From positions 73,884 to 137,883 of the forward strand of contig JAGGZT010000004.1 of assembly GCA_021161905.1 (NCBI GenBank): 64,000 nt of DNA, written 5' to 3'. The notes beneath the pieces were generated by a model. That model had not been told where the DNA came from, did not search any database, and saw only the letters and a program-made list of their open reading frames with translations. The position numbers and the translations under genes are program-made. This DNA comes from Acidobacteriota bacterium. GTDB lineage: Bacteria > Acidobacteriota > B3-B38 > Guanabaribacteriales > JAGGZT01. Of the stretch, positions 9,462 through 48,673 are shown in pieces. The stretch's first letter is position 1. Every line of letters begins with the position of its first letter.

Positions 9462-9488
9462 AATTCCCTCGTGAAAGATAACAAAAAA

Positions 9489-9567: not shown

Positions 9568-9574
9568 ACCCGAT

Positions 9575-16052: not shown

Positions 16053-17173
16053 TTCTTAAGGAGTTTTTTAGCAAACCAACCCTCGACCACCTCTATCGCC
16101 CCTTCAGGGCATACCTCCTGACAGCAAAAACAGCTGATGCATTTACGGTAATCAATGACTATCCTTCCCTCCTCCTCTCGTGCCGCCTTCGGGGGGCAAA
16201 CAGAGACACACTGACTGCAAAGCACACATTGTTCCTCGTTCACTACTGGTCGAGGAGAGAGGTTTTTTCTAAAAAGGCGGGTAAAAAGCGAAAGGAGCCC
16301 GCTTCTTACAGATGAGACCCGAGGCATCTTAAAGTCGGAGAGAAGGAAACCAGAAGGATCATCCCCTACAAGCTCCAAATCTTTTGGGTCAAATAGATGC
16401 CTCCTCTTGGCTTCAAATAGGTGAGGTAGAGTATCAGGGGAGACCCCTAAGAGAGAGGTGATGGCAAAATCTATTGCCAACGGATCCTTCCCCACCATCA
16501 CGAAGCCAAGTTTCCGGGGAGTTCCCCCACTTCCTGGACCATCCCCCTCTAAACCAACAACGCCATCAACAATAGTAAGCGCAGGCTTTATCGCCAAGTA
16601 GAGATCAAGTAGCATCAAGGCGAAAAAATGGGGGTTATTTCCTGCCCTCAGATGCCACTGCGCCTTCCTCCTACCCACTATACAGCCAAAGAGGTTCTTC
16701 ACCGCCAAAGTAAGACCCATCAGGTTGTGGGTCTTCACCTTGGGAAGGTTTATTATCACATCGGCTTCTACCACCTCCTTTGCTATTTCTATCCTCTTGA
16801 AGGTAGCGGAAGGGGGCGGAGTAATGGAAACCGATTGAGAAAAGGGAACAAGCTCCGCCCCCGTCTTATCCGCTACTTCGGTAATCCCTGCCACCTCGGC
16901 TACCTTCGCTAAATCGCTCAGCGCCGGACTGTCGCCTATCAAGGGCTCCCCTCCAGCTCGAATTACCATTCGCGCTACCGCTTCTACCACCGCAGGATGA
17001 GTGGTGATCGCCTTCTCCTTAGGATTTGGAGAAAGGAGGTTCGGTTTGAGAAGAACCCTGCTTCCTCGGGGGATGAATCGCTCGATCCCTCCAATCAAGG
17101 AAAGGGCTTTTTCTATCCCTTCCTCTACCTCTCCATAAGAGGAGACCCGAGAAAGTGCAACCTTCTCCTTCAT
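16049..17173 (-). CDS. DUF362 domain protein with C-terminal 2x[4Fe-4S] ferredoxin domain
   Basis: The N-terminal 300 aa match the DUF362 pattern (VLLKPNLLSP...). The C-terminus carries CVLCSQCVSVCPP and CISCFCCQEVCPEGA cluster motifs. Confidence 0.65.
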   Translation of the reverse strand: MKEKVALSRVSSYGEVEEGIEKALSLIGGIERFIPRGSRVLLKPNLLSPNPKEKAITTHPAVVEAVARMVIRAGGEPLIGDSPALSDLAKVAEVAGITEVADKTGAELVPFSQSVSITPPPSATFKRIEIAKEVVEADVIINLPKVKTHNLMGLTLAVKNLFGCIVGRRKAQWHLRAGNNPHFFALMLLDLYLAIKPALTIVDGVVGLEGDGPGSGGTPRKLGFVMVGKDPLAIDFAITSLLGVSPDTLPHLFEAKRRHLFDPKDLELVGDDPSGFLLSDFKMPRVSSVRSGLLSLFTRLFRKNLSPRPVVNEEQCVLCSQCVSVCPPKAAREEEGRIVIDYRKCISCFCCQEVCPEGAIEVVEGWFAKKLLKN

Positions 17174-32885: not shown

Positions 32886-32896
32886 CTTTCTCCTCC

Positions 32897-33289
32897 TCAT
32901 TTTCTTTCGGTTAACGCCTTAGTGGGGCAGATGGCAACGCACTCGCCGCAGTAGTCGCACTTGAACATATACTCATACTCCTGATGGGGAACGATCACTC
33001 CCGTAGGACAGGCATCGGCACAAGCCCAGCAGAGGATGCATTTTTCCGGATCGACCTTATAGATTCCATTATCGTTGTAGATGGCATCGACAGGGCAGGC
33101 TTCAGCGCACTTCCCGCACTGGATGCAGATGGCTATCTTGTACTTTCCCGGAGCAGGGAATTCACCCTTCACCCAGATCGCCGACTTCTTGGGATTCGTC
33201 TCCTTAAAATGAAATATGGAACAAACCGTCTGACAGAGGAGACACCCACAACAGCGCTCCTCATCGACCTTTATACTTTTTATAGGCAT
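32897..33289 (-). CDS. Ferredoxin with multiple [4Fe-4S] motifs (likely electron partner of AOR)
   Basis: 130 aa with four Cys clusters: CCGCLLCQTVC, CIQCGKCAEACP, CILCWACADACP, CDYCGECVAICP. Confidence 0.85.
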   Translation of the reverse strand: MPIKSIKVDEERCCGCLLCQTVCSIFHFKETNPKKSAIWVKGEFPAPGKYKIAICIQCGKCAEACPVDAIYNDNGIYKVDPEKCILCWACADACPTGVIVPHQEYEYMFKCDYCGECVAICPTKALTERK

Positions 33290-33315
33290 ATTAGAACACC
33301 TCCCACAAACTTTAC

Positions 33316-35436
33316 TTATTTGATCACTGCCTTCCTGACACCAATATTATAGGAGGAATCCTCCACCTTAACCACTATTATATGCTCCCCTGGAGCAAGG
33401 GAGGGAAGCCGAAGTTTGAACGACTCCTTTCTGGAATCAAGCATACCATCCACCGAGGATAATCTTTCCCATTTCCCCGCGTCGATGGAATACCAAGCGT
33501 CCTTGATGAAGCTCAACTCATCGGAGGCGGAAAAGGACACCACTGCCCGCCCCTTTCCCCTGATCACCTGAAGCACAGACAACTTGGGTGGGGTATTATC
33601 GACCACGAAGAAATCGGATATCTTCTCCGTAGAAAGGGGGTGAGCCGGATTCGTCACCACATCTGAAACTACCACCTTTAGCTGGTATCTTCCATCGGGA
33701 ACCGATTCCGTATCCCAAGAATAAAAAGGCCGGGAAAGATCCTTTATTAGGGGCATCCAATTTCTCTCTCCTTCACCTCGAACGAAAAGACTGTAGCGAA
33801 GCTCATCACCATTCGGATCCACTCCCTTGAAGAGGAAGGTGAGCATCCCCTTGCGATATAGCATCTTTCCTAAATCCTCCCCAGCTGATGGCTTCCTCCC
33901 AAGTTTCAACGGTTTTTCCAGATGGGATTGGTATCCCGGAGGAAGAAGAGCGAGGAGCTCATTGGTGTACTGGGCTTCCCGCTTGAAATAGATACCCGGT
34001 GGATAAACCACTATCTTGTTTACTTTCGGGGGAAGGTTCTGGGGGAGATAGAAGAGGGACACCGAATGCAACCTCGGGGTGAGCTTTGGGTTTTCACTAA
34101 CCAGCTCCGCCCGAAACTGGATGAACCGGGCGGGCGGACTTTTCACCTCTGAACCTTCTGGATTCAAATAGGGCGGAGACCAGGGGCTCCAGGTAGCGTC
34201 CGGTTTCTCTGAATTTCCACTCCTGGTAAAGAGCCTGATATAGGTACCGGTCGGAGTCCTCCCGGAAAAGGATATCCTGCCGAAGCGGGAGATGGTTTTC
34301 GTATCCTTGACAGGGGAAAGATAGATCCCCTTAGCCCGGAACTTGGGCTCAAGCTTCAATAGTTCAGAGGAATTGCTCGTACCTATAAAAAGGGTGTTCC
34401 CCGTCGGAGCGAGCGCGGTTATATCCTTCTGGGAAACCTTCATTATAAGAGAGCTCTTCCCCTCCTCATCAATGAGAAGAAGAGTCCCTTTACTCCCCGT
34501 TCCTACAAAAACCCCCCTCCCCTTTATATAGGCGAGGGAAAATACCCGCTCCTTCTTGAGCTTCAACACCTCCTCCACCTTTTTCCCATCTGGTGAGATG
34601 CGGTAAACAACCGAGGCAAACTCGTCCTTCACCTCCTGCTTTGTTCCCTTCTCCTCTCCTTCGCTGGAACTCGGGGAAGCCTTTTTCCCTCCCTTTACCG
34701 CGGCAGCATATATCATCCCTTTATCATCGACGGCGAAAGCCTTCACCTCATAAAACGGGGTATCCCACAGAACCGAGGCTTTATTCTTCCCCTCCACCTT
34801 CAGTACCAGCCCGCTACCCGCAGTACCAGCAAGGAGAAAGCCGGCAGGATGCCAGAAGAGAGCGGTGATGTGGTCCTCCTTGGTCTCATAATGGAGATCG
34901 CCTTTACCCGCAGGGTCTACCTTGAAAATGCTACCGCTATCACCGGTTCCCGCATATAGGTTTCCCGCTGGATCAAAGGCAAGAGACCAGATATACCGCT
35001 TCCTCGGATTGAAGAAGGAAACAGCACTTCCCGAAGGGCTCACCCGATATATCTTCCCCCTGGGGGAGGAAGCGACGAAAAGGCTTCCCGATTTAGAAAA
35101 AGCGAGAGCATAGATCTCCATCTCAGGAGCCTTGAAGAAAAGGGAGCCCTTGCCCTGGGGAGAGACCCGAAATACCTTCCCTTCGCTACCCGTCCCCAAA
35201 TAAAGCTCGCCACCAGCGCCTACAGCAAGCGCCCAGATACGAGGGGCATCCGGCTTGAACAAAGAGGAAGAAAGGGGGGCGATAACTATCTCCCCCTCAC
35301 CGGTTATCGAGCTCGTCTTCGGCTCGCCAGAGAGAAAGCCCTTTCCCTTCACCTGCCACACCTTGACCGTGGAAGAAAGAAGAAAAGGGACAATCAGAAA
35401 TAAGAAAAAAGCAAGCGATAAGATTCTCCGTCTCAT
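33316..35436 (-). CDS. Secreted beta-propeller repeat protein (Reg_prop / NHL-like ~40-aa repeats) with a C-terminal Ig-like region
   Basis: Signal peptide. At least 7 repeats of type G.LY.GT...G.IY.V.P.G. C-terminal beta-sandwich-like region. Confidence 0.55.
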   Translation of the reverse strand: MRRRILSLAFFLFLIVPFLLSSTVKVWQVKGKGFLSGEPKTSSITGEGEIVIAPLSSSLFKPDAPRIWALAVGAGGELYLGTGSEGKVFRVSPQGKGSLFFKAPEMEIYALAFSKSGSLFVASSPRGKIYRVSPSGSAVSFFNPRKRYIWSLAFDPAGNLYAGTGDSGSIFKVDPAGKGDLHYETKEDHITALFWHPAGFLLAGTAGSGLVLKVEGKNKASVLWDTPFYEVKAFAVDDKGMIYAAAVKGGKKASPSSSEGEEKGTKQEVKDEFASVVYRISPDGKKVEEVLKLKKERVFSLAYIKGRGVFVGTGSKGTLLLIDEEGKSSLIMKVSQKDITALAPTGNTLFIGTSNSSELLKLEPKFRAKGIYLSPVKDTKTISRFGRISFSGRTPTGTYIRLFTRSGNSEKPDATWSPWSPPYLNPEGSEVKSPPARFIQFRAELVSENPKLTPRLHSVSLFYLPQNLPPKVNKIVVYPPGIYFKREAQYTNELLALLPPGYQSHLEKPLKLGRKPSAGEDLGKMLYRKGMLTFLFKGVDPNGDELRYSLFVRGEGERNWMPLIKDLSRPFYSWDTESVPDGRYQLKVVVSDVVTNPAHPLSTEKISDFFVVDNTPPKLSVLQVIRGKGRAVVSFSASDELSFIKDAWYSIDAGKWERLSSVDGMLDSRKESFKLRLPSLAPGEHIIVVKVEDSSYNIGVRKAVIK

Positions 35437-35454
35437 ATCCCCTCCCTTGACACT

Positions 35455-37251
35455 CTACTCCGTTATTCTAAGGGTCAATTCCCTTTTTCCTATGATCTTA
35501 TATTCTGTCTTCAACCTCTCCTCGTCGAGGAAGACAGCATCGATCTTCTTGAACCCGCCTTCCCCACCGGCATCACCCATCACCGCGAGGATCGATGGGG
35601 GAAGAGCAGGTAGATACTTGCCCTTAAGCAAACCGCTCTCCCCCTTGCGGGAAAAGAGGGCGTAGACGATGTTATTCCGCCGCATATTGCTAAGCAAGCG
35701 GATCAGGTCCTCGACACTCCGCGGCTTTATACCTCCCTTCAACTTCTCCCGCTCGAAGGCAGAGACAGAGGAAGCATCGCCCACCACTATCTTGACCTTG
35801 CCCGGGCTCATCTTCAGGGGAACCCTCAGATGAAACCTTCTCACCACAGGCTTCCCCCTCCTCGGCTTCAACCTCACCGACAGGGTTAACGGCTCACCCG
35901 GTTTTGCCCTCGCCTTATCGAGCCAGGCATCGATGAGGCTCGCCTCCCTAAGCTCATCGGAGTAATCGATGGTGAGCCTTATCCCCCTTATATCTACCTT
36001 TCTGAACTCGTTGTTATAGAGATAATGGACTATAGCTCCAACGATGGTGCTCGCCTCCTCAGATGCCGAAGTTCCGGAAAAAAGGTTATCTATCCTCACC
36101 GAAGGAAGGTCGCCAAGCTCGATCCTCCCCGATAGATGGATACTCATATCACCGGATCCCTTCTCCACCGATTGGATGATGTTCGCCAGGGTAAGCTGGA
36201 CCAAGAAGGGAGCGAAGACCGAATGAAGGGCAACATTGTAATGGAAAACCTCCTCTCCCTTCTTTGAACGGAGTTTGACCTCAATGGGGAGAAGGAGAGG
36301 TTTCCTTCCGAGTATGCCCAAAGTACCGGCGCTCCTATCCTGAACCACTGCTCCCACCTCTTTAGTAGGCACAGCAAGCTTGGAGGATTCAGCGAGGGAA
36401 GGAAGAATGGTAACCACTTTTGCCTTGGTGAGAGGAAGCGAGGTAGCTCCAAGGAGGAAAAATGGATGTCCGAAGGCGAGTACCCTATCACCTCGACGAT
36501 AGGTGAGGGTACCGGTAGCGGTAAGGTTTACATCCCCGGACACGAGCTGGACGCCAATCGCAGAGCCAGGGGCAAGCTCACTCCCATCATCTTCCCCGCT
36601 CAGCCCGCCTCCGAACTGAGTGGCAATAAAACCGTATTTTGCAAATACCGATTGATATCGACGGATAAGTGCTGGCGAGAACCCAGAGAAAACAAGGGGT
36701 GTCTCGATCGGCTTGAAACTTAACCCCGAAGCAAGCTCTCCCTTCAAGGGGAGGAAATTAAAGGAAGGAAGAACCGTCTTCTTCTCAGGCTTAAGAGGCA
36801 AGGGGAGCGGTTTCACAAAGCCTAAAAAATCACTTTGAAGAAATCCACCCTTTATTTCCTCTTTATCCTTCTCATCTATCTTCAACATATATTCTATGGG
36901 GGTGATCCCCACTATCGGTTCCTTAATAAAGGTTCCAATGCGGAGGGAAACGGCACCCACCAATTTCCCATCTATATAAACCGGGGACCCGCTCATCCCA
37001 GCCATAACCCCCGCAGCCTTCACCTTATCTCCGGAAAGGCGAGCTAAGATGAGGTCCATCTTGGGTCCAAGAGCATTTCTCAACACACCGAGGATCTCCA
37101 CATTGAACTCCTCTATCTTCTCTCCCTGAAAGACGGTTTTCCCTACCCCTTTCATCCCCACCTTTACCTGAGATAGGGGGAGGATTGGCTCCTCCGCGTA
37201 AGAGAGAAGGGAAATGGCAACAGCTAAGAAAAAAAGCGTTATCTTCCTCAT
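35455..37251 (-). CDS. Secreted peptidase S55 (SpoIVB-like) domain protein
   Basis: Signal peptide. GVMAGMSGSPVYIDGKLVGAVS resembles the SpoIVB catalytic-Ser region (GMSGSP). The C-terminal ~250 aa are unassigned. Family call from motif memory only. Confidence 0.45.
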   Translation of the reverse strand: MRKITLFFLAVAISLLSYAEEPILPLSQVKVGMKGVGKTVFQGEKIEEFNVEILGVLRNALGPKMDLILARLSGDKVKAAGVMAGMSGSPVYIDGKLVGAVSLRIGTFIKEPIVGITPIEYMLKIDEKDKEEIKGGFLQSDFLGFVKPLPLPLKPEKKTVLPSFNFLPLKGELASGLSFKPIETPLVFSGFSPALIRRYQSVFAKYGFIATQFGGGLSGEDDGSELAPGSAIGVQLVSGDVNLTATGTLTYRRGDRVLAFGHPFFLLGATSLPLTKAKVVTILPSLAESSKLAVPTKEVGAVVQDRSAGTLGILGRKPLLLPIEVKLRSKKGEEVFHYNVALHSVFAPFLVQLTLANIIQSVEKGSGDMSIHLSGRIELGDLPSVRIDNLFSGTSASEEASTIVGAIVHYLYNNEFRKVDIRGIRLTIDYSDELREASLIDAWLDKARAKPGEPLTLSVRLKPRRGKPVVRRFHLRVPLKMSPGKVKIVVGDASSVSAFEREKLKGGIKPRSVEDLIRLLSNMRRNNIVYALFSRKGESGLLKGKYLPALPPSILAVMGDAGGEGGFKKIDAVFLDEERLKTEYKIIGKRELTLRITE

Positions 37252-37272
37252 CGCTCTCCTCTGATGATATGT

Positions 37273-39246
37273 TCACATCCTCTTAGGCACCGAAATCCCC
37301 ATAAGGGAAAGGGTACGGATAAGCTGTTCCTTAAAGATAAAAACAAGCACCGCCCGCTCTAAGCGTCTTTCTTCGTCCTTTTCGTTTATAACCGGGTACT
37401 TATGATAATAGCTGTTGAACTCTTGCGCCAGATTGAAGGCATATTTGGCGAGCTGTGAGGGCTCAAGCGAGGAAACGGAAAGAGAAACTACCTCAGGCAG
37501 GCGGGCGATATCGAGGATGATGCGCCAGCTTTCTTTCCCTTCCTCCTTCTCTTCGAGTGATCTGAAGGATAAAGAGCTAATCGCCGATCTTAAATCATCC
37601 TCCTTAACCCCGAACCTCTCCTCAAGCTTCCTCAAAATGTTCTTCGCCCTAACCGCAGCGTACTGGATGTAGGGACCGGATTCCCCCTCGAAGTTGAGTG
37701 CCTCATCAAAATCAAAGGAGATAACCCTATTCCTCCCATACTTGATCATAAAATAACGGAGCGCCCCCACCGCTATATCCCGCGCTGTCTCAGCCAATTC
37801 ATCAGGGGAAAGTTCCGGATTCCGGGAACGAACCTCAAGCCTTGCCTTTTCCTCCAGCTTATCGATCAAATCGTCCGCCTTAACGCCAAGCCCCTTCCTC
37901 CCCGACATCTCGATATAGGGCTTTTCCTCCTCTTCAGGCGAGATGGGAAGTCCCAGCTCGCGGGCACAGGAAGGGGTGAGTGCCACCATCTCATAGGAGA
38001 AGTGGATTAGCCCCTCCGCCTCCTTCTTATAACCTGCTGATCTCAACCCCTCCTTTACCACCATCTGGGGATATGATTGACGGACATCGATCACATTGTA
38101 GACCCGCTCTCCCTTGCCAAAGGAGGGATGTCTTTCTTCACCATCCTGAGATGATGACCTAAAGACCACCTTACCATCGGGATAGGTATAGAACTTGCGA
38201 TAGAAGAAATCCCGTCCAAGGAGACCGAACTTCCACATATGATAGGCAATATCCTTCCCCACATAGGTCACCGTACCGTTCGAACGGACGAGGACCTTCT
38301 CCTTATCCTCGAGGTGGGCGAACTCATCGCTTCCGCTCAGATCCATTACGAAGCAGCCCTTATTCTTTCCTGAGGTGGCGAGATAAACCGCACCTCTTTC
38401 TTTTAATAGCTCAAACGCCTGCTCCCAGAATTTGAGACGGATAATATCCCCCTCCCAGGGCAGAAGATCGTAGTGAATGTTTATCCGTTCCATTGTTTTA
38501 AGGTGAGCGAGGACGATCCTTTTGGCGATGTAGCTCGCCATCTCAGCTATCTCCCCCTCCCCCTCCTCTATCTCCTTAAGCACCTCTGCTCTCCTTTCCG
38601 CCTCCTCTTTATTTTCCGCTAAATAGCTCGTTACCTTAGAATAAAGGTCCCAGCAGTAATAGTCGAACCTTTCCGAAATCTTCTCTACCTCCTCTAAGGA
38701 TTTCCCTTCCAGATACTTGAAGCCGAAAACGACATCCGCCACCTGAACCCCGGTATCGTCGATGTAATTTTGAACCTCAACCTCCTCACCAAGGAAGCGG
38801 AGCAGGCGGGCAAGGGTATCACCGAGGCAGGCGTTCCTCAAATGGCCTATATGAGCTGCCTTGTTTGGATTGATGCTCGAATGCTCTACGATAACCTTTA
38901 CCCCCAGCTTCCCCTTCCTCTTCTCGCCGAGCGAGGAGATGAGCTTCCTCAAAAAATCAGCTCGATCCAAGAAGAAGTTGATATAACCGGAACCGGCTAC
39001 CTCCACCTTCGATATACCGGAGATCGAGGAAAAGAAGGAGAGGAGCTCCTCGGCGATCTTCCGGGGAGGTTTTTTAAGGCTCTTTGCCAAAGAGAAGGCA
39101 ATCGGGGTGGCGAGATCGCCCATCTCAATGGAGGGTGGATGCTCGAGGATGACCGAAGGTGGTTCAATACCGTATCGATCTAAAATAGCGGACCGAATAG
39201 CATCCTTTATTATCTCATTTATACCAAGCATATCATCCTCGCTCAA
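37273..39246 (-). CDS. argS: Arginine--tRNA ligase
   Basis: Arg_tRNA_synt_N features (ISKVEVAGSGYINFFL). Class I HIGH motif in SSINPNKAAHIGHLRNACLGDTLARLL. DALR anticodon-binding C-terminus ending in M. Confidence 0.8.
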   Translation of the reverse strand: MSEDDMLGINEIIKDAIRSAILDRYGIEPPSVILEHPPSIEMGDLATPIAFSLAKSLKKPPRKIAEELLSFFSSISGISKVEVAGSGYINFFLDRADFLRKLISSLGEKRKGKLGVKVIVEHSSINPNKAAHIGHLRNACLGDTLARLLRFLGEEVEVQNYIDDTGVQVADVVFGFKYLEGKSLEEVEKISERFDYYCWDLYSKVTSYLAENKEEAERRAEVLKEIEEGEGEIAEMASYIAKRIVLAHLKTMERINIHYDLLPWEGDIIRLKFWEQAFELLKERGAVYLATSGKNKGCFVMDLSGSDEFAHLEDKEKVLVRSNGTVTYVGKDIAYHMWKFGLLGRDFFYRKFYTYPDGKVVFRSSSQDGEERHPSFGKGERVYNVIDVRQSYPQMVVKEGLRSAGYKKEAEGLIHFSYEMVALTPSCARELGLPISPEEEEKPYIEMSGRKGLGVKADDLIDKLEEKARLEVRSRNPELSPDELAETARDIAVGALRYFMIKYGRNRVISFDFDEALNFEGESGPYIQYAAVRAKNILRKLEERFGVKEDDLRSAISSLSFRSLEEKEEGKESWRIILDIARLPEVVSLSVSSLEPSQLAKYAFNLAQEFNSYYHKYPVINEKDEERRLERAVLVFIFKEQLIRTLSLMGISVPKRM

Positions 39247-39284
39247 AAGGGGCTACTGATTATACTACCTTTGGCAAAAGATGG

Positions 39285-39950
39285 TCAATCTCCGCCCTTT
39301 CTAAAATAGCATCGCTTCAACCCCTCAAGGAGAACAAACCTGCCAAGAGGAATAACAGAACACTCAAAGCTCTCTATAAACGCTTTATTCTCACAGAGCC
39401 CCCCGGAAAGATAGAGCTTTCTCGGACGGTTAACCAGAAGAAAACAGTTATGGGCTATCCCCTTAAGAAAGCCGGAAAACGCCTCCTCGTAAGGCACCCC
39501 TCCCGCTATCAGGTCGAACATCTTGGTCATCCCAAGGACACCGCAGGTCACCGGAATCCTCTTCGCCTCCCGGGGCACCTTATCAAGGGAGATGTGAAAA
39601 TAATTGGTGAGAAGCTCGATTATCTGCCCAGTGAAGGCACCGCATTCGGTATTCCAGTCCATCTCGACTATCTTCCCCCCCTCAACCCGTACATACTTTA
39701 CATCCCTCGCCCCACAGTCGAGAAGGGTGAAATCTGGCTCATCGATGAGGGCAAGCCCTCCCTCCGCTAAAGCAACCAGCTCGTTCACCCGCCTGGGATA
39801 AGAGGAGACATTATATCCAGTGGCAAGCTCGACCTCAAAATCATCCCTCAACTCCTTGAACCGACGGGTAGGGATGATCTGATAACCTCCCTCATCGAGG
39901 AAGTAGACCTTGGTGTAAGCGGTGCCGCCGTCTAAAAGGATCCTTTTCAT
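39285..39950 (-). CDS. ASKHA-fold ATPase, BadF/BadG/BcrA/BcrD or HgdC 'CoA-enzyme activase'-like (short form)
   Basis: 221 aa. N-terminal phosphate-1 motif ILLDGGTAYTKVYFL. Cysteine pair (LLDCGARD ... NTECGAFTGQ) like the [4Fe-4S]-bridging cysteines of activases. Confidence 0.45.
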   Translation of the reverse strand: MKRILLDGGTAYTKVYFLDEGGYQIIPTRRFKELRDDFEVELATGYNVSSYPRRVNELVALAEGGLALIDEPDFTLLDCGARDVKYVRVEGGKIVEMDWNTECGAFTGQIIELLTNYFHISLDKVPREAKRIPVTCGVLGMTKMFDLIAGGVPYEEAFSGFLKGIAHNCFLLVNRPRKLYLSGGLCENKAFIESFECSVIPLGRFVLLEGLKRCYFRKGGD

Positions 39951-40693
39951 CTCACATTAAATTTGATAAACGCCTCTATCTTCGCCACCGTAGCCTTGGT
40001 AAGTCGTTCATCGACCTCGACGAAGAGCCCCTGATATCTCCGAGCGAAGTTATAGGCAAGCGCCGTTTTCTGACAGAAACTGTGGGCGAAGAAGACAGTA
40101 GGGACATCAGGATCTACCGAAAGCTCAAGTGAAAGGTCCGCCGGGGTCTTGTTCTCCATACATCGGGTCCAACCGTAGATATGGGTCCCCTCAGGGAAGA
40201 GATCAAGGATATCAAAATCATAAGGGGGAACCCCCCAGAAACCGCAACGGGGCTTAGTCCTTCGAAGCTTGAGCCCTGGTGGAAGCGGTTTTATCACCGT
40301 ATCTACGATCAGCTCCATCTTCCTCCGCAAGGGGAGATCGCTTACCGAGATGGGAAAGCCCGCTCCCCTCATATTGGTGTTCCTCTCCGCCAAAACCGGA
40401 ATACCAGCAAGCTCAAACTCACTTGCCAAGTAGCGCATACCATCGCATTTTCCCTCCCCTACATCGGCAAGCACCAAAGAAAGTTTGCCACTTCTCGATA
40501 GGTGAAAGGCGTTCTCCGCCACCCGCCTGAGGATGGGACAATAGATCCGAGGGAGGATCCGCTCATCACGGGAAGCACCGGGAAGAGGGTTATCGAGATC
40601 GATGATGGTATACCCATCTTTGAGATAAGCCTCGATCGTCTCCCATCTCGGAACACCGGCGATACCGACTACCTTCTCTCCCATCTCATTCAT
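39947..40693 (-). CDS. Cysteine-rich hypothetical protein, no family recognised
   Basis: 248 aa. Conserved-looking Cys at IYCPIL, GEGKCDG, PRCGFWG, WTRCME, FCQK. Overlaps the ASKHA gene by 4 nt (coupled). Its own start lies 8 nt inside queC. Confidence 0.5.
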
Positions 40694-41375
40694 CCAATGG
40701 ATAGGGGTGCTGGTAAGGGATGGGATCGGGAACCCCTGCCTCCCTGAAGGCGCGACGCCTTAGAACACAGCTATCGCAAATACCACAGGCGATCTCGTTC
40801 TCCTTATAGCAGGACCAACTGAGCTCAAAGGGGGCGGAAAGCTCCACGCCCTTAAGCACTATCTCCTTCTTGCTCATCCCAATTAATGGTGTTAGGATCT
40901 CGATCTTCGTTTCCGGCTTTGTCCCAAGCTCTATCACCCTGTTAAAGGCGTGGAAGAACTCCCTCCGACAATCGGGATAGCCTGAGCTATCGACCTCTAC
41001 CGCGCCGATGAAGACTTTACTTGCTCCGATCGCCTCGGCAAAGGAGACACCGACCGAAAGGAGGTTGGCATTTCTGAAAGGAACATAGGAAGGAGGAATG
41101 TCCTTCCTCTTCAGGTCCGCCTTCCCCACCTCTATTCTGGGATCGGTTAGGCTCGAGCCGCCGATATCCTTGAAGTGATCGAGCCTGACCACCAACCTCC
41201 GGGAAACCTTGTAGAAATCCGCTATATCCTCAAAGGCTTTCCGCTCCCTCGCCTCAGTCCTCTGTCCGTAGGAGGCATGGAGAAAGGCAAGCTCATACTC
41301 CCTCGCTGCAATGGCAGCGGTGACCAGGCTGTCCATCCCACCACTTACAAGAACAACCGCTAACTCCCGTTTCAT
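40686..41375 (-). CDS. queC: 7-cyano-7-deazaguanine synthase QueC
   Basis: PP-loop VLVSGGMDS and the C-terminal zinc motif [14 protein letters not shown]. Confidence 0.9.
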
Positions 41376-41378
41376 ACC

Positions 41379-42017
41379 TTAAACCCCCCTTTCCGTTTGG
41401 GGCCAAATCAACTTATGAAGTTGAAGTTGAAGCCGGGCGTTCAAGCCATCTCGCACCATCAGCTCCGCAAGCCTCTCCGGCGGAAATAGCCTGTGGGCGG
41501 GAGAAAAAAGGACATTTCCCCTCTCAAAAAGTCGGTAGCGGGAGCAAACCTCCTTTGCCCAATTATAGTCCTCCTCCGAGGTGAGGACGAATTTCACCTC
41601 ATCCTTTTCCTTCAACTTCTCTATATTATCCCACAACATCCTATCAGCCATACCGGATCCAGGACATTTGATATCCATAACAATAACTACCCTCTCGTCC
41701 ACCTTCCCTATATCAAGGCTTCCATTGGTCTCGAGGAGGACGATAAAACCGGAGGAGAGAAATTGGTCGATCAAAGGATAAACCTCGGGAGAAAGAAGCG
41801 GTTCCCCACCGGTTATGGTAATAAGTCTTATCCCATAATCCTTAACCCTCTTCACCACCGAAGCGAGGGAAAGCTCCTCCCCTTCATAATATGCATAACG
41901 GGTATCGCAATAACTGCAACGGAGATTACATCCGGTAAGCCGGATAAAAACCGAGGGATACCCAGCGAAAGAGGATTCCCCCTGAATACTGGCGAATATC
42001 TCGTTTACCTTCATCAC
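41379..42017 (-). CDS. queE: 7-carboxy-7-deazaguanine synthase QueE (radical SAM)
   Basis: EIFASIQGESSFAGYPSVFIRLTGCNLRCSYCDT carries the QueE-type CxxxCxxC with the preceding QGEG-like motif; 212 aa. Confidence 0.9.
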   Translation of the reverse strand: MMKVNEIFASIQGESSFAGYPSVFIRLTGCNLRCSYCDTRYAYYEGEELSLASVVKRVKDYGIRLITITGGEPLLSPEVYPLIDQFLSSGFIVLLETNGSLDIGKVDERVVIVMDIKCPGSGMADRMLWDNIEKLKEKDEVKFVLTSEEDYNWAKEVCSRYRLFERGNVLFSPAHRLFPPERLAELMVRDGLNARLQLQLHKLIWPQTERGV

Positions 42018-42021
42018 TCCC

Positions 42022-42936
42022 TCAAAACAGGCTCGGTTGAGCCGGTCCTTCCTTAGAGATGTCGAGAAGCCGGGGAAAGGAGGAAAGAAGGGGCTCAGGA
42101 ACCCTCACCTTCTCCCCAAAGAGGAGGCTTTTTATCTCAAGAGCGTTCGCCACTGCCTGCCCCCGGTAGTGATTGTTGGTGATAACTATCGTTTTTTCCG
42201 CCCTCTTTGCCATCTTCACGATCCGCTTAAGCCAGGGATAAAGCTCCTCTCGGCTATAAAAATAGTTGTACCGCTCATCCCTCTCCGCATCATCCCGAAA
42301 CCAGTCATCGTAATTCTGGCCATGGAGCCGAACATAAGCCACCTGCGCGGTCACCTCAGAAGTGGGAGAAAGGGAATGGGCGAATACCGGTTGGTCAATA
42401 TTGCAGAAAGAAACACCCTTCTCCCTTAATAGGGTGTACGAACCTGGATGATCCCAAGAAGAATGCCTTACCTCCACTGTCAAGGGGTACTCCCGGAACC
42501 GATGTATAAGGGAGAGAAGGTACTCCCTATTTTCCTCGGTATTCTTGAATGACCAAGGGAACTGGATCAAGATGGCATCAAGCCTCTCTCCTTCAGCGAG
42601 GGGAGAGATTCCCCGTTTGAATTCCTCCTCTTGCTCCTTAGTGGCAAGTTCTCGCTCATGGGTAAAACCGCGAAAAAGCTTCACCGTAAAGCTAAAGTCC
42701 TCCTTCCCCCTTACTCGGCTAACCCAATCTCGAGCCATCTCCGCGGGTATCATCCGATAAAAGGTTACATTCACCTCAACCACATCGAGATAGTCCGCAA
42801 GGTAGGCAAGTGGATCAAACCCTCGCCCCTTCTTCTTCGGAAAGACTACCCCTTCCCAATCGGGATAGGACCAGCCAGCGGTGCCGATCTTCACCCTCCC
42901 CTTGAGGGATGGCTCAATTATCCCTTCTTTTCCCAT
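42022..42936 (-). CDS. DUF72 (UPF0759/YecE-like) family protein
   Basis: KIGTAGWSYPDWEGVVFP is the DUF72 signature; 304 aa. Confidence 0.8.
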   Translation of the reverse strand: MGKEGIIEPSLKGRVKIGTAGWSYPDWEGVVFPKKKGRGFDPLAYLADYLDVVEVNVTFYRMIPAEMARDWVSRVRGKEDFSFTVKLFRGFTHERELATKEQEEEFKRGISPLAEGERLDAILIQFPWSFKNTEENREYLLSLIHRFREYPLTVEVRHSSWDHPGSYTLLREKGVSFCNIDQPVFAHSLSPTSEVTAQVAYVRLHGQNYDDWFRDDAERDERYNYFYSREELYPWLKRIVKMAKRAEKTIVITNNHYRGQAVANALEIKSLLFGEKVRVPEPLLSSFPRLLDISKEGPAQPSLF

Positions 42937-44362
42937 TCAGAAACTCCTTTAAAAAAGTGGGGATCGAAATATTCTCCTCGGAATCAAGCCCCCTGTTTAA
43001 AAGATTAGCATATTTTCTCAGCTTAGAGCAAACCTCAAGGGAAAACTCATCCCCACCGGTTGGTACTATCGTATTGTTGTGAAGAAGGGGATCGGCATCA
43101 TCCGCAATAAGCCCGAGTGCGACCGCCTTTTCCCAATCGGCTGTTCCCGGTATCGGAGAGTACGAGGCAAGCCTCACCTTAGCCCCAAGCGAGTTCACAT
43201 AAACGATGCTCTCCACCACCTCGCGAAGTCTCTGCCCTGGAAGCCCCATCATCAGATAAACCTCTATCCCCTCCCGAGCAAAACCGGCATCGGAGAGGAA
43301 CCTCAACGCTCGCTCAAAATCCTCATTCGCCACCTTCCCCCCGATCGCCTTCTGCCTCTTCGGGTCCGCCGTCTCCAAGCTTAATCGTACAGTGATGAAG
43401 CCCGCCTCCTTCATCAGGAAAGCAAGCTCAGAGGTCATCATCCTTGGGGAAAGCCCGTTTGGGGTGTGAAGCTTCAGGTTCAACCTTCGATCGATAATCC
43501 CCTTGAGGATCACCTCTATATGCCTCTTTGAATTAACGAGAAGGGCATCGTCGTAAAACACGAGATGCTGTATCCTATATCGCTCTTTATAATACTCGAT
43601 CTCCTCGATAACCCGAGAAGGATCTCGCTGGCGGAAAGGGGAGAAAAGAAGCCTCGAGGCGCAAAAACTGCAGGAAAGGGGGCAGCCCCGAGAGGTCAAT
43701 ATGGGAAGAAAAGGACCAACGCACACCCCATCGTAATCGGGATAGGGGAGGGAATCAAGCTCAGCTGAGATCGAAAAATCCCTTTCTCGCCCCAAGAGCT
43801 CATCAACCAACCTAAGCGCAGGAACCTCCCCAGGACCCCTTATGATGAAATCGGCACCGGTCACCTCCTTGGCATGATGAGGTAAAAGGGTGGCATAAAC
43901 GCCCCCGAGCACCACTGGAACATCGGGGAACCTCTTCTTCACCATCTTTATCGCCTGAACCACTCCCGGATACCAGTAGGTCATCATCGAGGTAATAAGA
44001 ACGGCGGAAGGTCTTCCTACCTTATCGAGCTCTGCCTCGAATATATCGAGTGGAAGCCCATAACGAGCATACCTTCTCGGCACATTGGAGAGCAACCTTG
44101 GCTTTTCCACCTCTTCTCGGTGGAACTTACCCCTTCCATCGTCTTTACCCTGCGGCTTGCTTTTTTCCTCCCGAGCGAGTAGCTCAGGGTGGAGGCGGTC
44201 GAGGCAGTCGATTATCTTCGTTTCATAGCCGAACTTTCTAAGAAAAGAGGAAAGATAAAGAAGCCCCACCGGCTTCACCCAGAGATCGTAGGCGGCGAAG
44301 TCGTAGATCCACGGGTTAATGAGAAGGATCTTTTTTCCCGACAAACCATCCTCCTTTATCAA
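42914..44362 (-). CDS. B12-binding-domain radical SAM enzyme (class B rSAM)
   Basis: N-terminal Rossmann-like B12-binding region (KKILLINPW...YLSSFLRKFGYETKIID). Radical SAM TSRGCPLSCSFCAS. 482 aa. Overlaps the DUF72 gene by 23 nt. Confidence 0.8.
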   Translation of the reverse strand: MIKEDGLSGKKILLINPWIYDFAAYDLWVKPVGLLYLSSFLRKFGYETKIIDCLDRLHPELLAREEKSKPQGKDDGRGKFHREEVEKPRLLSNVPRRYARYGLPLDIFEAELDKVGRPSAVLITSMMTYWYPGVVQAIKMVKKRFPDVPVVLGGVYATLLPHHAKEVTGADFIIRGPGEVPALRLVDELLGRERDFSISAELDSLPYPDYDGVCVGPFLPILTSRGCPLSCSFCASRLLFSPFRQRDPSRVIEEIEYYKERYRIQHLVFYDDALLVNSKRHIEVILKGIIDRRLNLKLHTPNGLSPRMMTSELAFLMKEAGFITVRLSLETADPKRQKAIGGKVANEDFERALRFLSDAGFAREGIEVYLMMGLPGQRLREVVESIVYVNSLGAKVRLASYSPIPGTADWEKAVALGLIADDADPLLHNNTIVPTGGDEFSLEVCSKLRKYANLLNRGLDSEENISIPTFLKEFLNGKRRDN

Positions 44363-44438
44363 TTCTCTCCTTAGTGGATTATAGCTCTCAAAGAAAAATT
44401 AAGCCAACCCAATACCCTCCGGTATAATCAAGAGCCGA

Positions 44439-45958: not shown

Positions 45959-48673
45959 ATGAAGGAAGAAAGGATAGTTTGTCCTCATTGTAAAACAGAG
46001 AATGTAGCCGACGCCAAATTCTGCAAGGAATGTGGTCTTCCCTTAAAGGGCGAAATAGATGAAGAAGCAGAAACCCTCCCCATAGGTAAGACCGAAAGAA
46101 AAAGGGCGAGGAAGAAAAAAGAGGAAGCAATCACAACAGAAGGGCTTGAATTAGGGAAGAGATATAAGATAATCCGGAAGATCGGCGAAGGAGGGATGGG
46201 TGCGGTCTATGAGGCGGAGGACAACATCCTCAATGTCAGGGTGGCACTAAAGGTGCTCCTCCCCCAACTTACCTCTGATGAAGAGGTCCGTGAGCGATTC
46301 AAGAGAGAGCTCTTGGTTACCCGAAACCTCTCTCATAAAAACATCGTCCGGGTATTCGACATCGGCGAGGGAACGCTTGGCGATGCTCCGGTACTTTACA
46401 TATCGATGGAACTTCTCAGAGGGACGACCCTTAAGCGGAAGATAGAGGATGAGGGAGCGCTCGAAATGAACCAGGCGATAAACATCATCAAACAGCTCTG
46501 TTCCGCTTTGGAAGAAGCTCATAAATCAGGGGTGGTGCATCGGGATGTAAAGCCTCAGAACATCTTCCTCGACGAGCGGAATCAGGTGAAGCTGGTGGAC
46601 TTCGGCATCGCTCGGGTTGGGGGAACAAAGCACCTCACCGCCACTGGATATACCTATGGTACCCCCGATTATATGGCACCAGAACAGGCGGACCCAAAAC
46701 AGGAGGTGGATTACAGAGCTGATCTCTACTCTTTGGGAGTGGTGATATACGAGATGTTTACCGGAGAACTCCCATTTAAGGGGGAGACCCCGCTAAAGGT
46801 GATTATGCAACACTTGAAAGAACCGCCACCTCCTCCCCGCTCGGTAAAGCCAGATCTCCCCATCTGGATAGAACGGATCATCTTAAAAGCAATGGAGAAA
46901 GAAAAGGAGAAACGGTATCAGAGCGCAATGGAGATAGTGAAGGACTTCCTTATCCAAAGGTTTCTCGAGGAGAGTAGAGAGAAAAGGTATAGAAGCGAGG
47001 CAGAGATAATCGAAGACTTGAGAAGCACCATAGTTGCTGAAGAAAAACCGGAGACAAAAGAAGAAAAAGAGAATGTAAAAAGACTGGAAAGAATGATGGA
47101 ACGGGAGCTCCGGGAGGAAGCGAAGTTCAAGGAGCTCATCCGGAGGGAGGAAAGAAAGGCAGCCTCCCTCCGTATTATGGTGTTCACCATCGCCCTCTTC
47201 GTTGCCCTTTCTGGGTTGGTACTTTATTACTTTATGGCGATAAGGGGGAAGAAGTCTCTCCCTCAGCCGGCTAAGATGGAGGCGGTCGCTTATTTTAAGC
47301 AACATGGGGTGATGCCCCTCTACTACGATGAGAACATTCCGGTCTCGGAGAAGGTGAGAAAGCTCAGAAAGAAGGCTGAGTTGGCAATAAAAGAGGGGAA
47401 GATTGTTGAGCCAGATAATGATTGTGCCCTTCGCTATCTAAACGATATCCTCTTCTACGAACCAACCGACCAATACGCCCAGGCCACAAAGGAAAAGCTT
47501 GCTGCCCACCTTCTGGTTCAGGGGGATGAGGCGCTGGCACAGGGGGAGAAGGAAAAAGCAAAAAAGAGTTATCTCTCCTATCTGGAGATATTCCCCAAAA
47601 ATAAAGAGGTTAAAAGTAGGCTGGCTTTACTTAATCCATCTCCAACCGAGGAAAAGCCTGAAAAAGCAACCTCTTCCCAACCATCTCTTTCCCCTTCCTC
47701 ACCGAAAAGCATCGAGGAACTCTTCACCGAGCTCGAAACCATTTTCAATAAAAGGGACTACTTCACCTCCCGAAGATTGGTAGAGGAGATACTCGCCAAG
47801 GACCCAGAAAATCCCATCGCTCTTGACTATTTAAAGAAGATAAACCAAGCGGAGGAGCGGTTGGTGAGGCTACGAGCGGAAGCCAAGAACCTTCTCGAAA
47901 GTGGTATCTACTATCAGGCGGAGAAAAAGGCTACCGAGATCCTAAAGGAGAACCCCGAAGATAACGAAGCAAGGCAGATACTTTCGGAAGCAAGAAGAAG
48001 GAGGGCAAGGATCCCCAAGGATATGGTACTGATACCCGCCTCCTCCTTCCTTATGGGTTCTCCCAGCCCTAGCGCTGGAGAAAAACCGATGAGGAAGGTC
48101 TATCTAAAATCTTTCCTCATAGACAAATATGAGGTTACCAACCAAAAGTACTTCCGGTTCATCTCAGCAACCGGGCACCGAATCCCCTTCGTTTACGCCA
48201 ATTGGGCACAACCTTACAACTGGCGAGGAGGACACTTCCCTGAAGGGAAAGAGAATTATCCGGTAGTACTGGTGAGCTATGCCGATGCCTTGGCATACGC
48301 CAACTGGGCGGGGAAAAGACTTCCTACTGAGGCAGAATGGGAAAAGGCGGCTCGCTATCTTGATGGACGGAATTATCCTTGGGGAAATATCTTCAAACCC
48401 GGCTATGCCAATTCAGCAGAGATGGGGATCAACGTTCCAGTAAGAGTAGGTAGTTTTCCTCAAGGGGTGAGCTTTTACGGTGTATTCGATATGGCGGGAA
48501 ATGTCTGGGAGTGGACCAGCGATTGGTTCTCCAATGGCCACTCATTCCGGGTGATAAAGGGAGGGTCCTTCCTCGAAGGTAAGGCAAAACTATTAACCTA
48601 TGCCCGGGAAGGAGAACGACCGAGCGCCATGCGGATAGATGTTGGATTTCGTTGTGTGAGGGATGTCAGGTAG
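45959..48673 (+). CDS. Ser/Thr protein kinase with N-terminal zinc ribbon, TM helix, TPR-like region and C-terminal FGE-sulfatase (SUMF1) domain
   Basis: Zinc ribbon CPHCKTEN...CKECG. Hanks kinase motifs (GEGGMGAVYEA, VALKVL, HRDVKPQNIFL, DFGIAR, GTPDYMAPE). TM LRIMVFTIALFVALSGLVLYYF. FGE domain (MVLIPASSFLMGS..., YRLPTEAEWEKAAR, WEWTSDWF). Confidence 0.85.
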   Translation: MKEERIVCPHCKTENVADAKFCKECGLPLKGEIDEEAETLPIGKTERKRARKKKEEAITTEGLELGKRYKIIRKIGEGGMGAVYEAEDNILNVRVALKVLLPQLTSDEEVRERFKRELLVTRNLSHKNIVRVFDIGEGTLGDAPVLYISMELLRGTTLKRKIEDEGALEMNQAINIIKQLCSALEEAHKSGVVHRDVKPQNIFLDERNQVKLVDFGIARVGGTKHLTATGYTYGTPDYMAPEQADPKQEVDYRADLYSLGVVIYEMFTGELPFKGETPLKVIMQHLKEPPPPPRSVKPDLPIWIERIILKAMEKEKEKRYQSAMEIVKDFLIQRFLEESREKRYRSEAEIIEDLRSTIVAEEKPETKEEKENVKRLERMMERELREEAKFKELIRREERKAASLRIMVFTIALFVALSGLVLYYFMAIRGKKSLPQPAKMEAVAYFKQHGVMPLYYDENIPVSEKVRKLRKKAELAIKEGKIVEPDNDCALRYLNDILFYEPTDQYAQATKEKLAAHLLVQGDEALAQGEKEKAKKSYLSYLEIFPKNKEVKSRLALLNPSPTEEKPEKATSSQPSLSPSSPKSIEELFTELETIFNKRDYFTSRRLVEEILAKDPENPIALDYLKKINQAEERLVRLRAEAKNLLESGIYYQAEKKATEILKENPEDNEARQILSEARRRRARIPKDMVLIPASSFLMGSPSPSAGEKPMRKVYLKSFLIDKYEVTNQKYFRFISATGHRIPFVYANWAQPYNWRGGHFPEGKENYPVVLVSYADALAYANWAGKRLPTEAEWEKAARYLDGRNYPWGNIFKPGYANSAEMGINVPVRVGSFPQGVSFYGVFDMAGNVWEWTSDWFSNGHSFRVIKGGSFLEGKAKLLTYAREGERPSAMRIDVGFRCVRDVR

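Follow-up and report, generated by a model that had tools for sequence, protein, structure and literature searches.

A six-gene block around queE and queC in an Acidobacteriota bacterium includes a widespread, predicted miniature ATP-powered Fe-S reductase

Six minus-strand genes surround queE and queC in the window, the whole 64-kb stretch of DNA that we analyzed. They are best explained as a clade-specific array of four separable modules rather than as one pathway, a reading to which we give a probability of about 0.62. The first three modules would be a stand-alone class B radical SAM enzyme, a DUF72 TIM-barrel protein that is probably a DNA-repair nuclease, and a queE-queC pair that supplies preQ0 for ordinary queuosine. 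The fourth would be a self-contained two-gene "mini-archerase." One of its genes, here called unkX, had been described only as a Cys-rich unknown and turns out, by homology, to be the likely cognate Fe-S partner of the adjacent ASKHA ATPase.

Gene order and conservation of the block

The features considered here are as follows.

42914-44362, minus strand: B12-binding class B radical SAM enzyme (B12-rSAM), 482 aa, TTG start
42022-42936, minus strand: DUF72 (YecE-like) protein, 304 aa
41379-42017, minus strand: queE, 212 aa, GTG start
40686-41375, minus strand: queC, 229 aa
39947-40693, minus strand: unkX, 248 aa
39285-39950, minus strand: ASKHA "archerase" ATPase, 221 aa
37273-39246, minus strand: argS (NF002447, 571 bits), outside the module
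44378-44407, minus strand: sigma-70-like promoter match 5' of the B12-rSAM gene, 10 of 12 matches, weak evidence
39288-39259, minus strand: promoter-like site in the ATPase-argS spacer, 11 of 12 matches

The open reading frame list agrees with the original prediction on the six minus-strand genes, their coordinates, and all five junctions, which measure -23, +4, +3, -8, and -4 nt from B12-rSAM to the ATPase. Pfam and NCBIfam profiles likewise bear out the five named domain calls (B12-rSAM, DUF72, QueE, QueC, and activase-like ATPase). All six genes are contained in a minus-strand run of 11 genes (31035-44362), and the co-directional argS lies 38 nt downstream of the ATPase gene. Elsewhere in the 64-kb window, 14 of 36 co-directional junctions (39%) are 5 nt or less, and against that background five consecutive tight junctions are only mildly unusual (approximately 0.39^5 = 0.009). 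The block is probably co-transcribed. The total count of promoter-like sites showed no excess over the shuffled-sequence expectation, and a search for a riboswitch linking the block genes found none.

The original prediction had asked whether this gene context recurs across genomes. It does within one clade, and we found it nowhere else: the window, L007, and L010 share the order from B12-rSAM to the ATPase at 52 to 65% identity. The upstream flanks differ in all three lineages; L010 also has a different downstream flank. argS follows the ATPase gene in two of the three; it does so in L007 and in L008, which is 92% identical to L007, and not in L010. In L008 a CAAX-protease gene is inserted between queC and unkX, so those two genes are not obligatorily coupled. 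The conservation of order exceeds the usual chance adjacency and could reflect a shared function in the clade.

The unkX-ATPase pair and its known relatives

The ATPase scores just under the gathering score of the BcrAD_BadFG model (29.7 versus 31.5 bits) and reaches 50 bits with TIGR00241. When phmmer was run against the PDB, the best match was HgdC (1hux, 1e-10), followed by DCCP-R (7yyl_E, 6e-10) and HadI (4eht, 1.5e-7), and MbdQ/P was also matched. Across 76 family members, C103, C136, and the phosphate and adenosine motifs are 100% conserved. Both cluster cysteines are kept in the alignments to HgdC, DCCP-R, HadI, and MbdP/Q, which supports the earlier assignment of the last gene as a probable electron-delivering activase.

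unkX has no match among Pfam and NCBIfam profiles, including the HGD-D Pfam model. A model of the unkX family, however, gave above-noise matches to BCR, HAD, and DCCP subunits only. Four of its cysteines (positions 52, 83, 178, and 207) are invariant, and two of these coincide with the DCCP motifs PRxxC and GExxCDG. Such matches identify unkX as a probable miniature homolog of the catalytic, Fe-S-containing subunits found in benzoyl-CoA reductases, 2-hydroxyacyl-CoA dehydratases, and double-cubane cluster proteins, although an exhaustive search found no sequence bridge from unkX to the long HadB/BcrB/DCCP-type proteins.

The arrangement resembles that of DCCP and its reductase DCCP-R (CHY_0487/0488 of C. 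hydrogenoformans; YjiM/YjiL of E. coli) in that a catalytic gene, encoding a homodimer in the case of DCCP, adjoins an ASKHA ATPase gene. unkX is nevertheless much shorter than DCCP (248 versus 388 to 421 aa), is missed by the HGD-D model, and has four invariant cysteines rather than a 7-Cys motif, which makes a complete [8Fe-9S] double cubane unlikely. The physiological substrate of DCCP is likewise unknown (PMC7317905). The same ATPase family also serves the HadBC/HadI and HgdAB/HgdC dehydratases and the class I benzoyl-CoA reductases BcrBC/AD, BzdNO/PQ, and MbdON/PQ, and the expected mechanism, ATP-energized single-electron injection, would be shared with them. Those enzymes are heterodimers of two paralogous 370- to 440-aa subunits that act on CoA thioesters and are encoded in catabolic operons, whereas unkX is a single short subunit encoded among housekeeping genes. 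The neighborhoods of the pair that we examined showed neither a CoA-ligase or CoA-transferase gene nor any other pathway gene.

The ATPase gene adjoins unkX in 76 of 85 unkX loci, usually with a 4-nt overlap. The pair spans many phyla, with representatives in Desulfobulbia, Acidobacteriota, Nitrospirota, Auribacterota, Melainabacteria, Clostridia, Planctomycetota, and Dehalococcoidia. Its flanks vary and are of a housekeeping character, including LptF/G, NadA, DapA, Nfo, RNase J, Obg, PdxST, IlvD, and aminoacyl-tRNA synthetases. No phage or defense-system link was found for the block, and no defense-system profile matched.

QueE, QueC, and a possible queuosine role for the pair

The queE product scored 267 bits with TIGR04349 (E value of 1e-79; equivalog cut-off, 300) and 218 bits with TIGR03963, was matched by E. 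coli QueE as a phmmer query at 9.8e-18, and carries the radical SAM motif CX3CX2C. We assign it on these scores as QueE, 7-carboxy-7-deazaguanine synthase. The neighboring product reached 175 bits with TIGR00364, above the cut-off of 150, and 230 bits with PF06508, which identifies it as QueC, 7-cyano-7-deazaguanine (preQ0) synthase. A QatC defense protein was considered for the latter and rejected, as the QatC score was only 27 to 30 bits.

As originally noted, queD, queF, folE, and tgt are absent from the 64-kb window: as phmmer queries, E. coli QueA, Tgt, QueD, QueF, QueG, and FolE gave no match there, and Pfam found none of these six families in the other window ORFs scanned. The accompanying premise that canonical loci pair queC and queE with queD, queF, or tgt does not hold generally, since in E. 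coli K-12 queD, queE, queF, and queA-tgt occupy separate loci. The remaining que genes of the present organism would be expected elsewhere in its genome, as in E. coli. A canonical queuosine/preQ0 locus is queCDEF of B. subtilis. Measured against such loci, QueE and QueC here are ordinary family members, and queE-queC adjacency is common; in contrast, queD and queF are not adjacent to queC, and unkX and the ATPase gene fill the two positions after it, hence the putative idea of a QueF replacement.

According to that idea, which we regard as possible but clearly the less likely reading, the pair would do the work of QueF (preQ0 nitrile to preQ1 amine) or of the epoxyqueuosine reductases QueG/QueH as an ATP-driven system not orthologous to them. 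queE-queC-unkX-ATPase would then form a four-gene functional unit, with only the radical SAM and DUF72 genes as passengers. Among the 85 loci, queC is near unkX only in the window's clade and, independently, in lineage L081; in both it lies directly 5' of unkX, and in the window and L010 the two genes overlap by 8 nt or 1 nt. QueC ranks first among the pair's immediate neighbors in a tally of 33 lineages and is the sole specific neighbor that recurs on separate branches. In one poribacterium, unkX is followed after 23 nt by a gene for a QueT-family transporter (52 bits; gathering score, 33.7). The queC and QueT lineages fall on two different branches of the unkX tree, which places the origin of adjacency to queuosine genes on two or more branches; given this and the rank of QueC, the pair is perhaps not independent of queE-queC. 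Aminoacyl-tRNA synthetases, RNase J, and Obg beside the pair in several lineages would also fit a tRNA-modification enzyme. Nitrile reduction by the pair is chemically plausible, given that triple bonds are among the substrates of DCCP and that cyanide inhibits it (PMC7317905).

Against this stands the finding that approximately 90% of the unkX loci sampled have no que gene within 10 kb. The QueT adjacency comes from a single genome and is absent from a 79%-identical relative (L026), the gene separating queC from unkX in L008 is unrelated, no preQ1 riboswitch was found, and in other lineages the pair adjoins ThiC, NadA, PdxST, or IlvD. QueF, moreover, requires NADPH only, which leaves no obvious need for a low-potential system driven by ATP.

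B12-rSAM, DUF72, and the standing of the block as a unit

The B12-rSAM protein has B12-binding (51 bits) and Radical_SAM (78 bits) Pfam domains and reached no NCBIfam equivalog. Its clade is marked by the N-terminal motifs NPWIYDF and MTYWYP, and relatives are encoded at at least 561 metagenome loci. In the neighborhoods of 79 other orthologue loci (43 to 52% identity), we found no queE, queC, unkX, or ATPase gene and no consistent partner; a DUF72 gene occurred near one, as a weak match on the opposite strand. B12-rSAM belongs to an uncharacterized class B clade that is normally a stand-alone gene. The DUF72 protein (PF01904, 190 bits) has its nearest homologs outside the clade in Acidobacteriota, and the three sampled (54 to 58% identity) were all solitary. 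DUF72 is akin to UV-damage endonuclease, and its genes are enriched near polB2 (PMC11791011). A literature search found no paper connecting DUF72 with deazaguanine. The gene is likely a passenger in the block.

The original prediction had joined all six genes in one tailoring pathway leading to a non-queuosine product, in which B12-rSAM methylates or rearranges preQ0 or another 7-deazapurine, DUF72 processes it, and the activase system reduces it. The order shared by three lineages with differing upstream flanks, junctions somewhat tighter than average, and the lack of queD, queF, and tgt in the window speak for it. We consider it improbable, since B12-rSAM, DUF72, and the pair occur mostly without queC and queE elsewhere, the very unlinking that the original prediction had named as telling against it: the linkage is absent from the 79 B12-rSAM loci, the 3 sampled DUF72 loci, and approximately 80 unkX loci. 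The relative of DUF72 is, in addition, a DNA-repair nuclease. The toyocamycin/sangivamycin, Dpd, and phage DpdA systems do use queE and queC as a preQ0 source, but known hallmarks of deazapurine tailoring are missing here: no TGT/DpdA-like protein was found in the window, and the ORFs scanned held no nitrile-hydratase domain and no dedicated phosphoribosyltransferase domain, the one match of the latter kind being an apt-like gene approximately 32 kb away. Relatives of B12-rSAM and unkX were also absent from viral contigs.

Just as doubtful is the proposal that the pair serves radical SAM and other 3-Cys [4Fe-4S] enzymes in general as an ATP-driven source of low-potential electrons or as a reductive (re)activator, and is present here because QueE and B12-rSAM are its clients. 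Fe-S and radical SAM enzymes are repeated immediate neighbors in unrelated lineages (QueE and B12-rSAM in the window's clade; in Auribacterota, two radical SAM genes that overlap the start of unkX; members of the ThiC family in two lineages that are divergent; NadA, which lies 8 nt upstream in one genome of Nitrospirota and approximately 3 kb off in Acididesulfobacter; IlvD downstream in L177), but this grouping is post hoc, such enzymes abound in anaerobes, most lineages lack such a neighbor, no fusion to a client was found among 1.84 billion representatives, and in every characterized relative the HadB/BcrB/DCCP-like part is where catalysis takes place rather than an electron relay.

The four-module reading leaves the pair with a mechanism that can be modeled on solved homologs. 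The ATPase is predicted to dimerize around a [4Fe-4S] cluster with C103 and C136 as ligands and to take an electron from ferredoxin or flavodoxin. ATP hydrolysis would then drive a very-low-potential electron into an Fe-S cluster held by the four invariant cysteines of unkX. As a stripped-down HadB/BcrB/DCCP relative, probably a DCCP-like homodimer, unkX would act on a housekeeping substrate, by either a difficult reduction or a radical dehydration. A 7-deazaguanine intermediate is the best-supported guess for that substrate, though a tentative one, and a role in the queuosine pathway is a lead rather than a result. The new part of the block is the pair itself, apparently a widespread and undescribed miniature ATP-powered Fe-S reductase.

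The unkX protein and its ATPase partner

The 248-residue protein unkX and the 221-residue ATPase encoded next to it form a miniature, hitherto undescribed member of the machinery of ATP-driven Fe-S reductases and dehydratases, one that is widespread in anaerobic lineages. Known systems of this kind, the archerases, are two-component and include 2-hydroxyacyl-CoA dehydratase (HAD), class I benzoyl-CoA reductase (BCR), and the double-cubane cluster protein (DCCP). In the window, the pair closes a block of six genes.

Genes of the six-gene block, in block order
42914-44362, minus strand: B12-rSAM, 482 residues, TTG start; B12-binding and Radical_SAM domains
42022-42936, minus strand: DUF72, 304 residues; DUF72 match of 190 bits
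41379-42017, minus strand: queE, 212 residues, GTG start; TIGR04349
40686-41375, minus strand: queC, 229 residues; TIGR00364
39947-40693, minus strand: unkX, 248 residues; no Pfam or NCBIfam model
39285-39950, minus strand: ASKHA ATPase, 221 residues; BcrAD_BadFG/acyl-CoA-dehydratase-activase-like

An alignment of 30 unkX members from many phyla contained four invariant cysteines, C52, C83, C178, and C207, along with further motifs that include a 16-residue stretch, HxYGWxRCMEN, and FCQK. The original prediction had listed the protein as a Cys-rich unknown. It gave no match to Pfam or NCBIfam at an E value of 0.01 or better, and the family as a whole escapes both collections. The AlphaFold model built from this alignment reached a pLDDT of 87 and a pTM of 0.83, and a Foldseek search with it returned eight matches at a probability of 1.00, consisting of DCCP, 2-hydroxyisocaproyl-CoA dehydratase, and the 3-methylbenzoyl-CoA reductase MbdO/N. 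By its modeled structure, unkX has the fold of HgdB, BcrB, and DCCP. Searched as a profile against the PDB, unkX hit DCCP only (E value of 0.11), in an alignment crossing the PRxxC and GExxCDG cysteine motifs known for DCCP (PMC7317905). In this weak alignment C52 and C83 match the cysteines of those two motifs, with a spacing of X30 versus X29 in DCCP, and C207 aligns with the C-terminal FCQ motif.

Three-cysteine motifs in archerases supply the ligands of a [4Fe-4S] cluster and seven-cysteine motifs those of an [8Fe-9S] cluster. Known members of the superfamily are 370 to 440 residues long and carry one motif or the other (PMC7317905). In contrast, unkX family members span 239 to 308 residues, and unkX falls outside both the FldB/C family (HGD-D, IPR010327) and its 370- to 440-residue length range. 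Exhaustive searching across 1.84 billion representatives turned up neither unkX fusions nor long relatives, and nothing bridging unkX in sequence to the long proteins; the seemingly long ORFs at three related loci from other genomes (L009, L035, and L039) are artefacts of arginine-rich read-through and not fusions.

The ATPase scored below threshold with both family models, at 29.7 against a gathering threshold of 31.5 for Pfam BcrAD_BadFG and at 50 against 125 bits for the activase model. It aligned to HgdC (1e-10), DCCP-R (6e-10), HadI, and MbdQ/P, and in the alignment to solved homologues C103 falls on the cysteine of CAAGTG and C136 on that of TCTVFA. Both cysteines and the nucleotide-binding motifs are 100% conserved in 76 members of the ATPase family. 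In solved homologue dimers, two such cysteines bridge a [4Fe-4S] cluster, and this pair of cluster cysteines is common to the archerase ATPases and the present one. The earlier reading of this gene as an activase is borne out by these alignments and by the invariance of both cysteines.

More than 1015 unkX homologues were found, and species-representative genomes encode a relative at 585 loci or more. The ATPase gene directly adjoins unkX, typically with a 4-nt overlap, at 76 of the 85 loci that have an unkX ORF. By analogy with the solved systems, unkX is predicted to be the cognate electron acceptor of the ATPase.

Gene neighborhoods and a possible role in queuosine synthesis

The genes flanking unkX are varied housekeeping genes, encoding NadA, DapA, Nfo, RNase J, Obg, PdxS/T, IlvD, ThiC-family proteins, and several aminoacyl-tRNA synthetases, with LptF/G in Desulfobulbia and two radical SAM enzymes (rSAMs) in Auribacterota. 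When 39 immediate same-strand neighbors were tallied over 33 lineages sharing no more than 70% unkX identity, QueC came out on top, with three occurrences plus the window, tied with LptF/G, whose rank represents a single clade event. A neighbor-joining tree of unkX placed the queC-adjacent clade of the window apart from the branch that holds L081, a locus with queC upstream of unkX, and a poribacterium with a QueT transporter gene 23 nt downstream. Since these are separate branches, adjacency of queuosine genes to unkX arose two or three times, and queuosine is the sole specific pathway that recurs across unkX branches.

This recurrence motivates the hypothesis that the pair is an ATP-driven replacement of QueF or of QueG/QueH in the queuosine pathway. 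The separate tree branches and the rank of QueC in the tally speak for it, but que genes are absent from about 90% of unkX loci, the QueT adjacency comes from one genome, and no riboswitch for preQ1 or cobalamin that would link the genes was found with Rfam at gathering thresholds in the window and five related loci. The replacement is accordingly a tentative idea that we judge unlikely on balance. Rfam matches in the window were three tRNAs and nothing else.

We give a rough probability of 15% to the reading in which the pair would serve 7-deazaguanine metabolism specifically, as an ATP-driven Fe-S reductase of low potential. In the most attractive version, the pair would reduce the preQ0 nitrile to preQ1 in the manner of nitrogenase and take the place of the NADPH-dependent QueF in anaerobes; the alternative would be a third epoxyqueuosine reductase. 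Our literature search found no link between archerases and queuosine.

The window's own queuosine proteins were both recognized by their family models, QueC by TIGR00364 (175 bits over a cut-off of 150.3) and QueE by TIGR04349 at an E value of 1e-79, although its 267 bits fall short of the equivalog cut-off (300). As the original prediction had noted, queD, queF, folE, and tgt are not present, and neither these nor queA or queG was detected in the 64-kb window by phmmer with E. coli K-12 proteins or by Pfam on the other scanned ORFs. The remaining pathway genes (folE, queD, queF, tgt, queA, and queG/queH) were missing from every related locus as well. The accompanying premise, that queC and queE normally travel with queD, queF, or tgt, does not hold as a rule, the genes being scattered in E. 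coli.

Neighbors of unkX are often Fe-S or radical-SAM enzymes, which suggests that the pair may be a general reductive activator, but the pattern was grouped post hoc, and we consider this role very improbable. LptF/G, RACo, DHH, and FKBP were rejected as partners of the pair because they reflect Desulfobulbia-specific synteny, and QueT was rejected as a general partner, being confined to one poribacterial genome (L003, L004, and L024 all come from a single organism).

Several other neighbors deserve record. Two unkX lineages that rank among the most divergent encode a ThiC-family radical-SAM-type enzyme of about 440 residues (PF01964) on the same strand, immediately upstream of unkX (L174:3482-4807, with unkX at 5001-5777; L176:3675-4997, with unkX at 5001-5807). 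No ATPase gene adjoins unkX in L174, and the L176 contig ends just past unkX. In Auribacterota (L040:6601-9932 and L063:3344-6642), two radical SAM genes precede unkX with their ends overlapping it; one product has 264 residues, and the other has about 845, with Radical_SAM_N2 and DUF2344 (TIGR03960-like). Two Clostridia genomes assembled from metagenomes carry an endonuclease-IV-like TIM-barrel gene (AP_endonuc_2) straight after the pair (L060:1765-2625 and L076:6282-7184), which echoes the UVDE-like DUF72 of the window and may be coincidence. Aminoacyl-tRNA synthetase genes lie a few genes from unkX in unrelated lineages (L034:10979-12484, L002:10160-11851, and L179:7289-8350 and 9818-10672), comprising class II D/K/N type, class Ic, class Ib, and GlyQ/GlyS enzymes, besides argS in the window clade. 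A gene for a DUF362 and ferredoxin domain protein is found at 16049-17173 (minus strand) in the window, and a DUF362 gene follows the pair at seven Desulfobulbia loci (e.g., L069:11910-12752).

Conservation and interpretation of the six-gene block

The original prediction had joined all six genes in one pathway tailoring preQ0 or a 7-deazapurine toward a product other than queuosine. Its gene models were sound: the coordinates of the six ORFs and their junctions (in block order, a 23-nt overlap, gaps of 4 and 3 nt, and overlaps of 8 and 4 nt) matched the ORF listing exactly, and family scans bore out five of the six labels, unkX being the protein that matches no model. The block is part of an 11-gene minus-strand run (31035-44362), with argS 38 nt after the ATPase gene and an S55-type peptidase gene after that. 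Outside the block, 14 of 36 co-directional pairs in the window (39%) also have junctions of no more than 5 nt, so that five in a row (~0.39^5, or ~0.009) are only mildly unusual against this background; same-strand tight packing in a compact genome mimics a pathway operon. Promoter-like sites precede the first gene and also occur within the ATPase/argS spacer, at the count expected from shuffled sequence.

The full order was found at three of the 85 unkX loci, namely the window, L007 ("candidate division B38"), and L010; L008 and L001 hold partial blocks at contig ends. The three complete blocks are 52 to 65% identical, protein by protein, and their flanks differ, with DUF1847 upstream in L007, whereas the block of L010 is preceded by gcvP genes and followed by a Shedu gene. 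The block is therefore conserved within one clade. Synteny of that clade reaches past the six genes, since in both the window and L008 argS is followed by a 598-residue protein with a weak SpoIVB/S55 peptidase match (35455-37251, minus strand; L008:4683-6485) and then a beta-propeller protein. In L008, a gene for an Rce1-like CAAX protease (439-1161) sits between queC and unkX and is lacking in the 92% identical L007, indicating that queC and unkX are not obligatorily coupled. The Shedu-type defense gene (SduA_C) of L010 (11609-12616) is directly downstream of the block, where the window has argS.

At the loci sampled outside the clade, the first two genes stand apart from the other four. B12-rSAM has an N-terminal B12-binding domain (PF02310, 51 bits) and a radical SAM core of the CxxxCxxC type (PF04055, 78 bits), as in class B rSAMs, and reached no characterized subfamily cut-off in NCBIfam. 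It belongs to a large, uncharacterized clade that is represented at no fewer than 561 metagenome loci and shares the conserved N-terminal motifs NPWIYDF and MTYWYP. The window's own contig accounts for one of the best 80 of these loci; queE, queC, unkX, and the ATPase gene are absent near B12-rSAM at all 79 others (43 to 52% identity), and DUF72 appears at one of them, weakly and on the opposite strand. No conserved partner emerged, the commonest neighbor occurring at only 14 of 78 loci, and B12-rSAM is normally a stand-alone gene. Three DUF72 homologues sampled outside the clade (54 to 58% identity, Acidobacteriota) likewise lie among unrelated genes. The literature describes DUF72 as a TIM barrel that is related to UV-damage endonuclease and enriched near translesion-polymerase operons (PMC11791011); no literature link to deazaguanine was found.

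A single tailoring pathway is partly supported by the gene order kept in three lineages of one clade, but the unlinking of B12-rSAM and DUF72 elsewhere, which the original prediction had itself named as refuting, largely refutes it. We regard a joint pathway of all six genes as having a slim chance, and the new deazapurine pathway proposed for the block is probably absent. Nucleoside-forming or nitrile-modifying domains were not found among the window ORFs scanned, and a toy/dpd-type 7-deazapurine tailoring or DNA-modification cluster was rejected, with no TGT-like match in the window. An anti-phage Qat system, in which QatC is partnered by QatA, QatB, and QatD, was also rejected: QatC gave 27 to 30 bits only, over the C-terminal Zn motif, and the other five block proteins had no specific PADLOC match. 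A defense system, Qat-like or Shedu-linked, was discarded because PADLOC reported generic rSAM and QueC similarity alone. IMG/VR contained no true relatives of B12-rSAM or unkX, and a phage or DNA-modification link was rejected on that ground.

Elsewhere in the window, a 904-residue protein (45959-48673, plus strand) carries a zinc ribbon at its N terminus and an FGE-sulfatase (formylglycine-generating-enzyme-like) domain at its C terminus, both fused to a Ser/Thr protein kinase domain, and a 170-residue ORF (9488-10000, plus strand) overlapping an opposite-strand tRNA gene (9492-9567) is probably not a real gene.

Proposed mechanism and significance

By analogy with solved homologues, the ATPase cluster would be loaded by reduced ferredoxin or flavodoxin, and ATP binding and hydrolysis would drive a conformational "archer" movement of the ATPase. 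An electron would then be injected at very low potential into the unkX Fe-S site, and unkX would use it either in a demanding reduction or to dehydrate a substrate by radical chemistry. Our analysis shows the fold, the conserved candidate ligand residues, and the gene pairing; cluster type and ATP coupling are predicted. An aldehyde:ferredoxin oxidoreductase gene (AFOR_N and AFOR_C; 31035-33289, minus strand) adjoining a poly-ferredoxin gene indicates a strictly anaerobic host that uses W- or Mo-pterin and fits a low-potential redox theme.

Archerases catalyze reductions that are among the hardest in biology, and their chemistry includes Birch-type benzoyl-CoA reduction, dehydrations by way of ketyl radicals, and the DCCP-catalyzed reduction of acetylene. 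With its dedicated ATPase, unkX is the smallest version yet seen of this ATP-energized Fe-S machinery. A role in 7-deazaguanine metabolism, if true, would provide the first physiological substrate of a DCCP- or archerase-like system outside CoA-ester metabolism. The family is minimal and highly conserved, occurs in housekeeping contexts, and gives repeated hints at preQ0/queuosine genes, and so one 248-residue protein and one 221-residue ATPase offer a tractable entry to the substrates of the DCCP branch.
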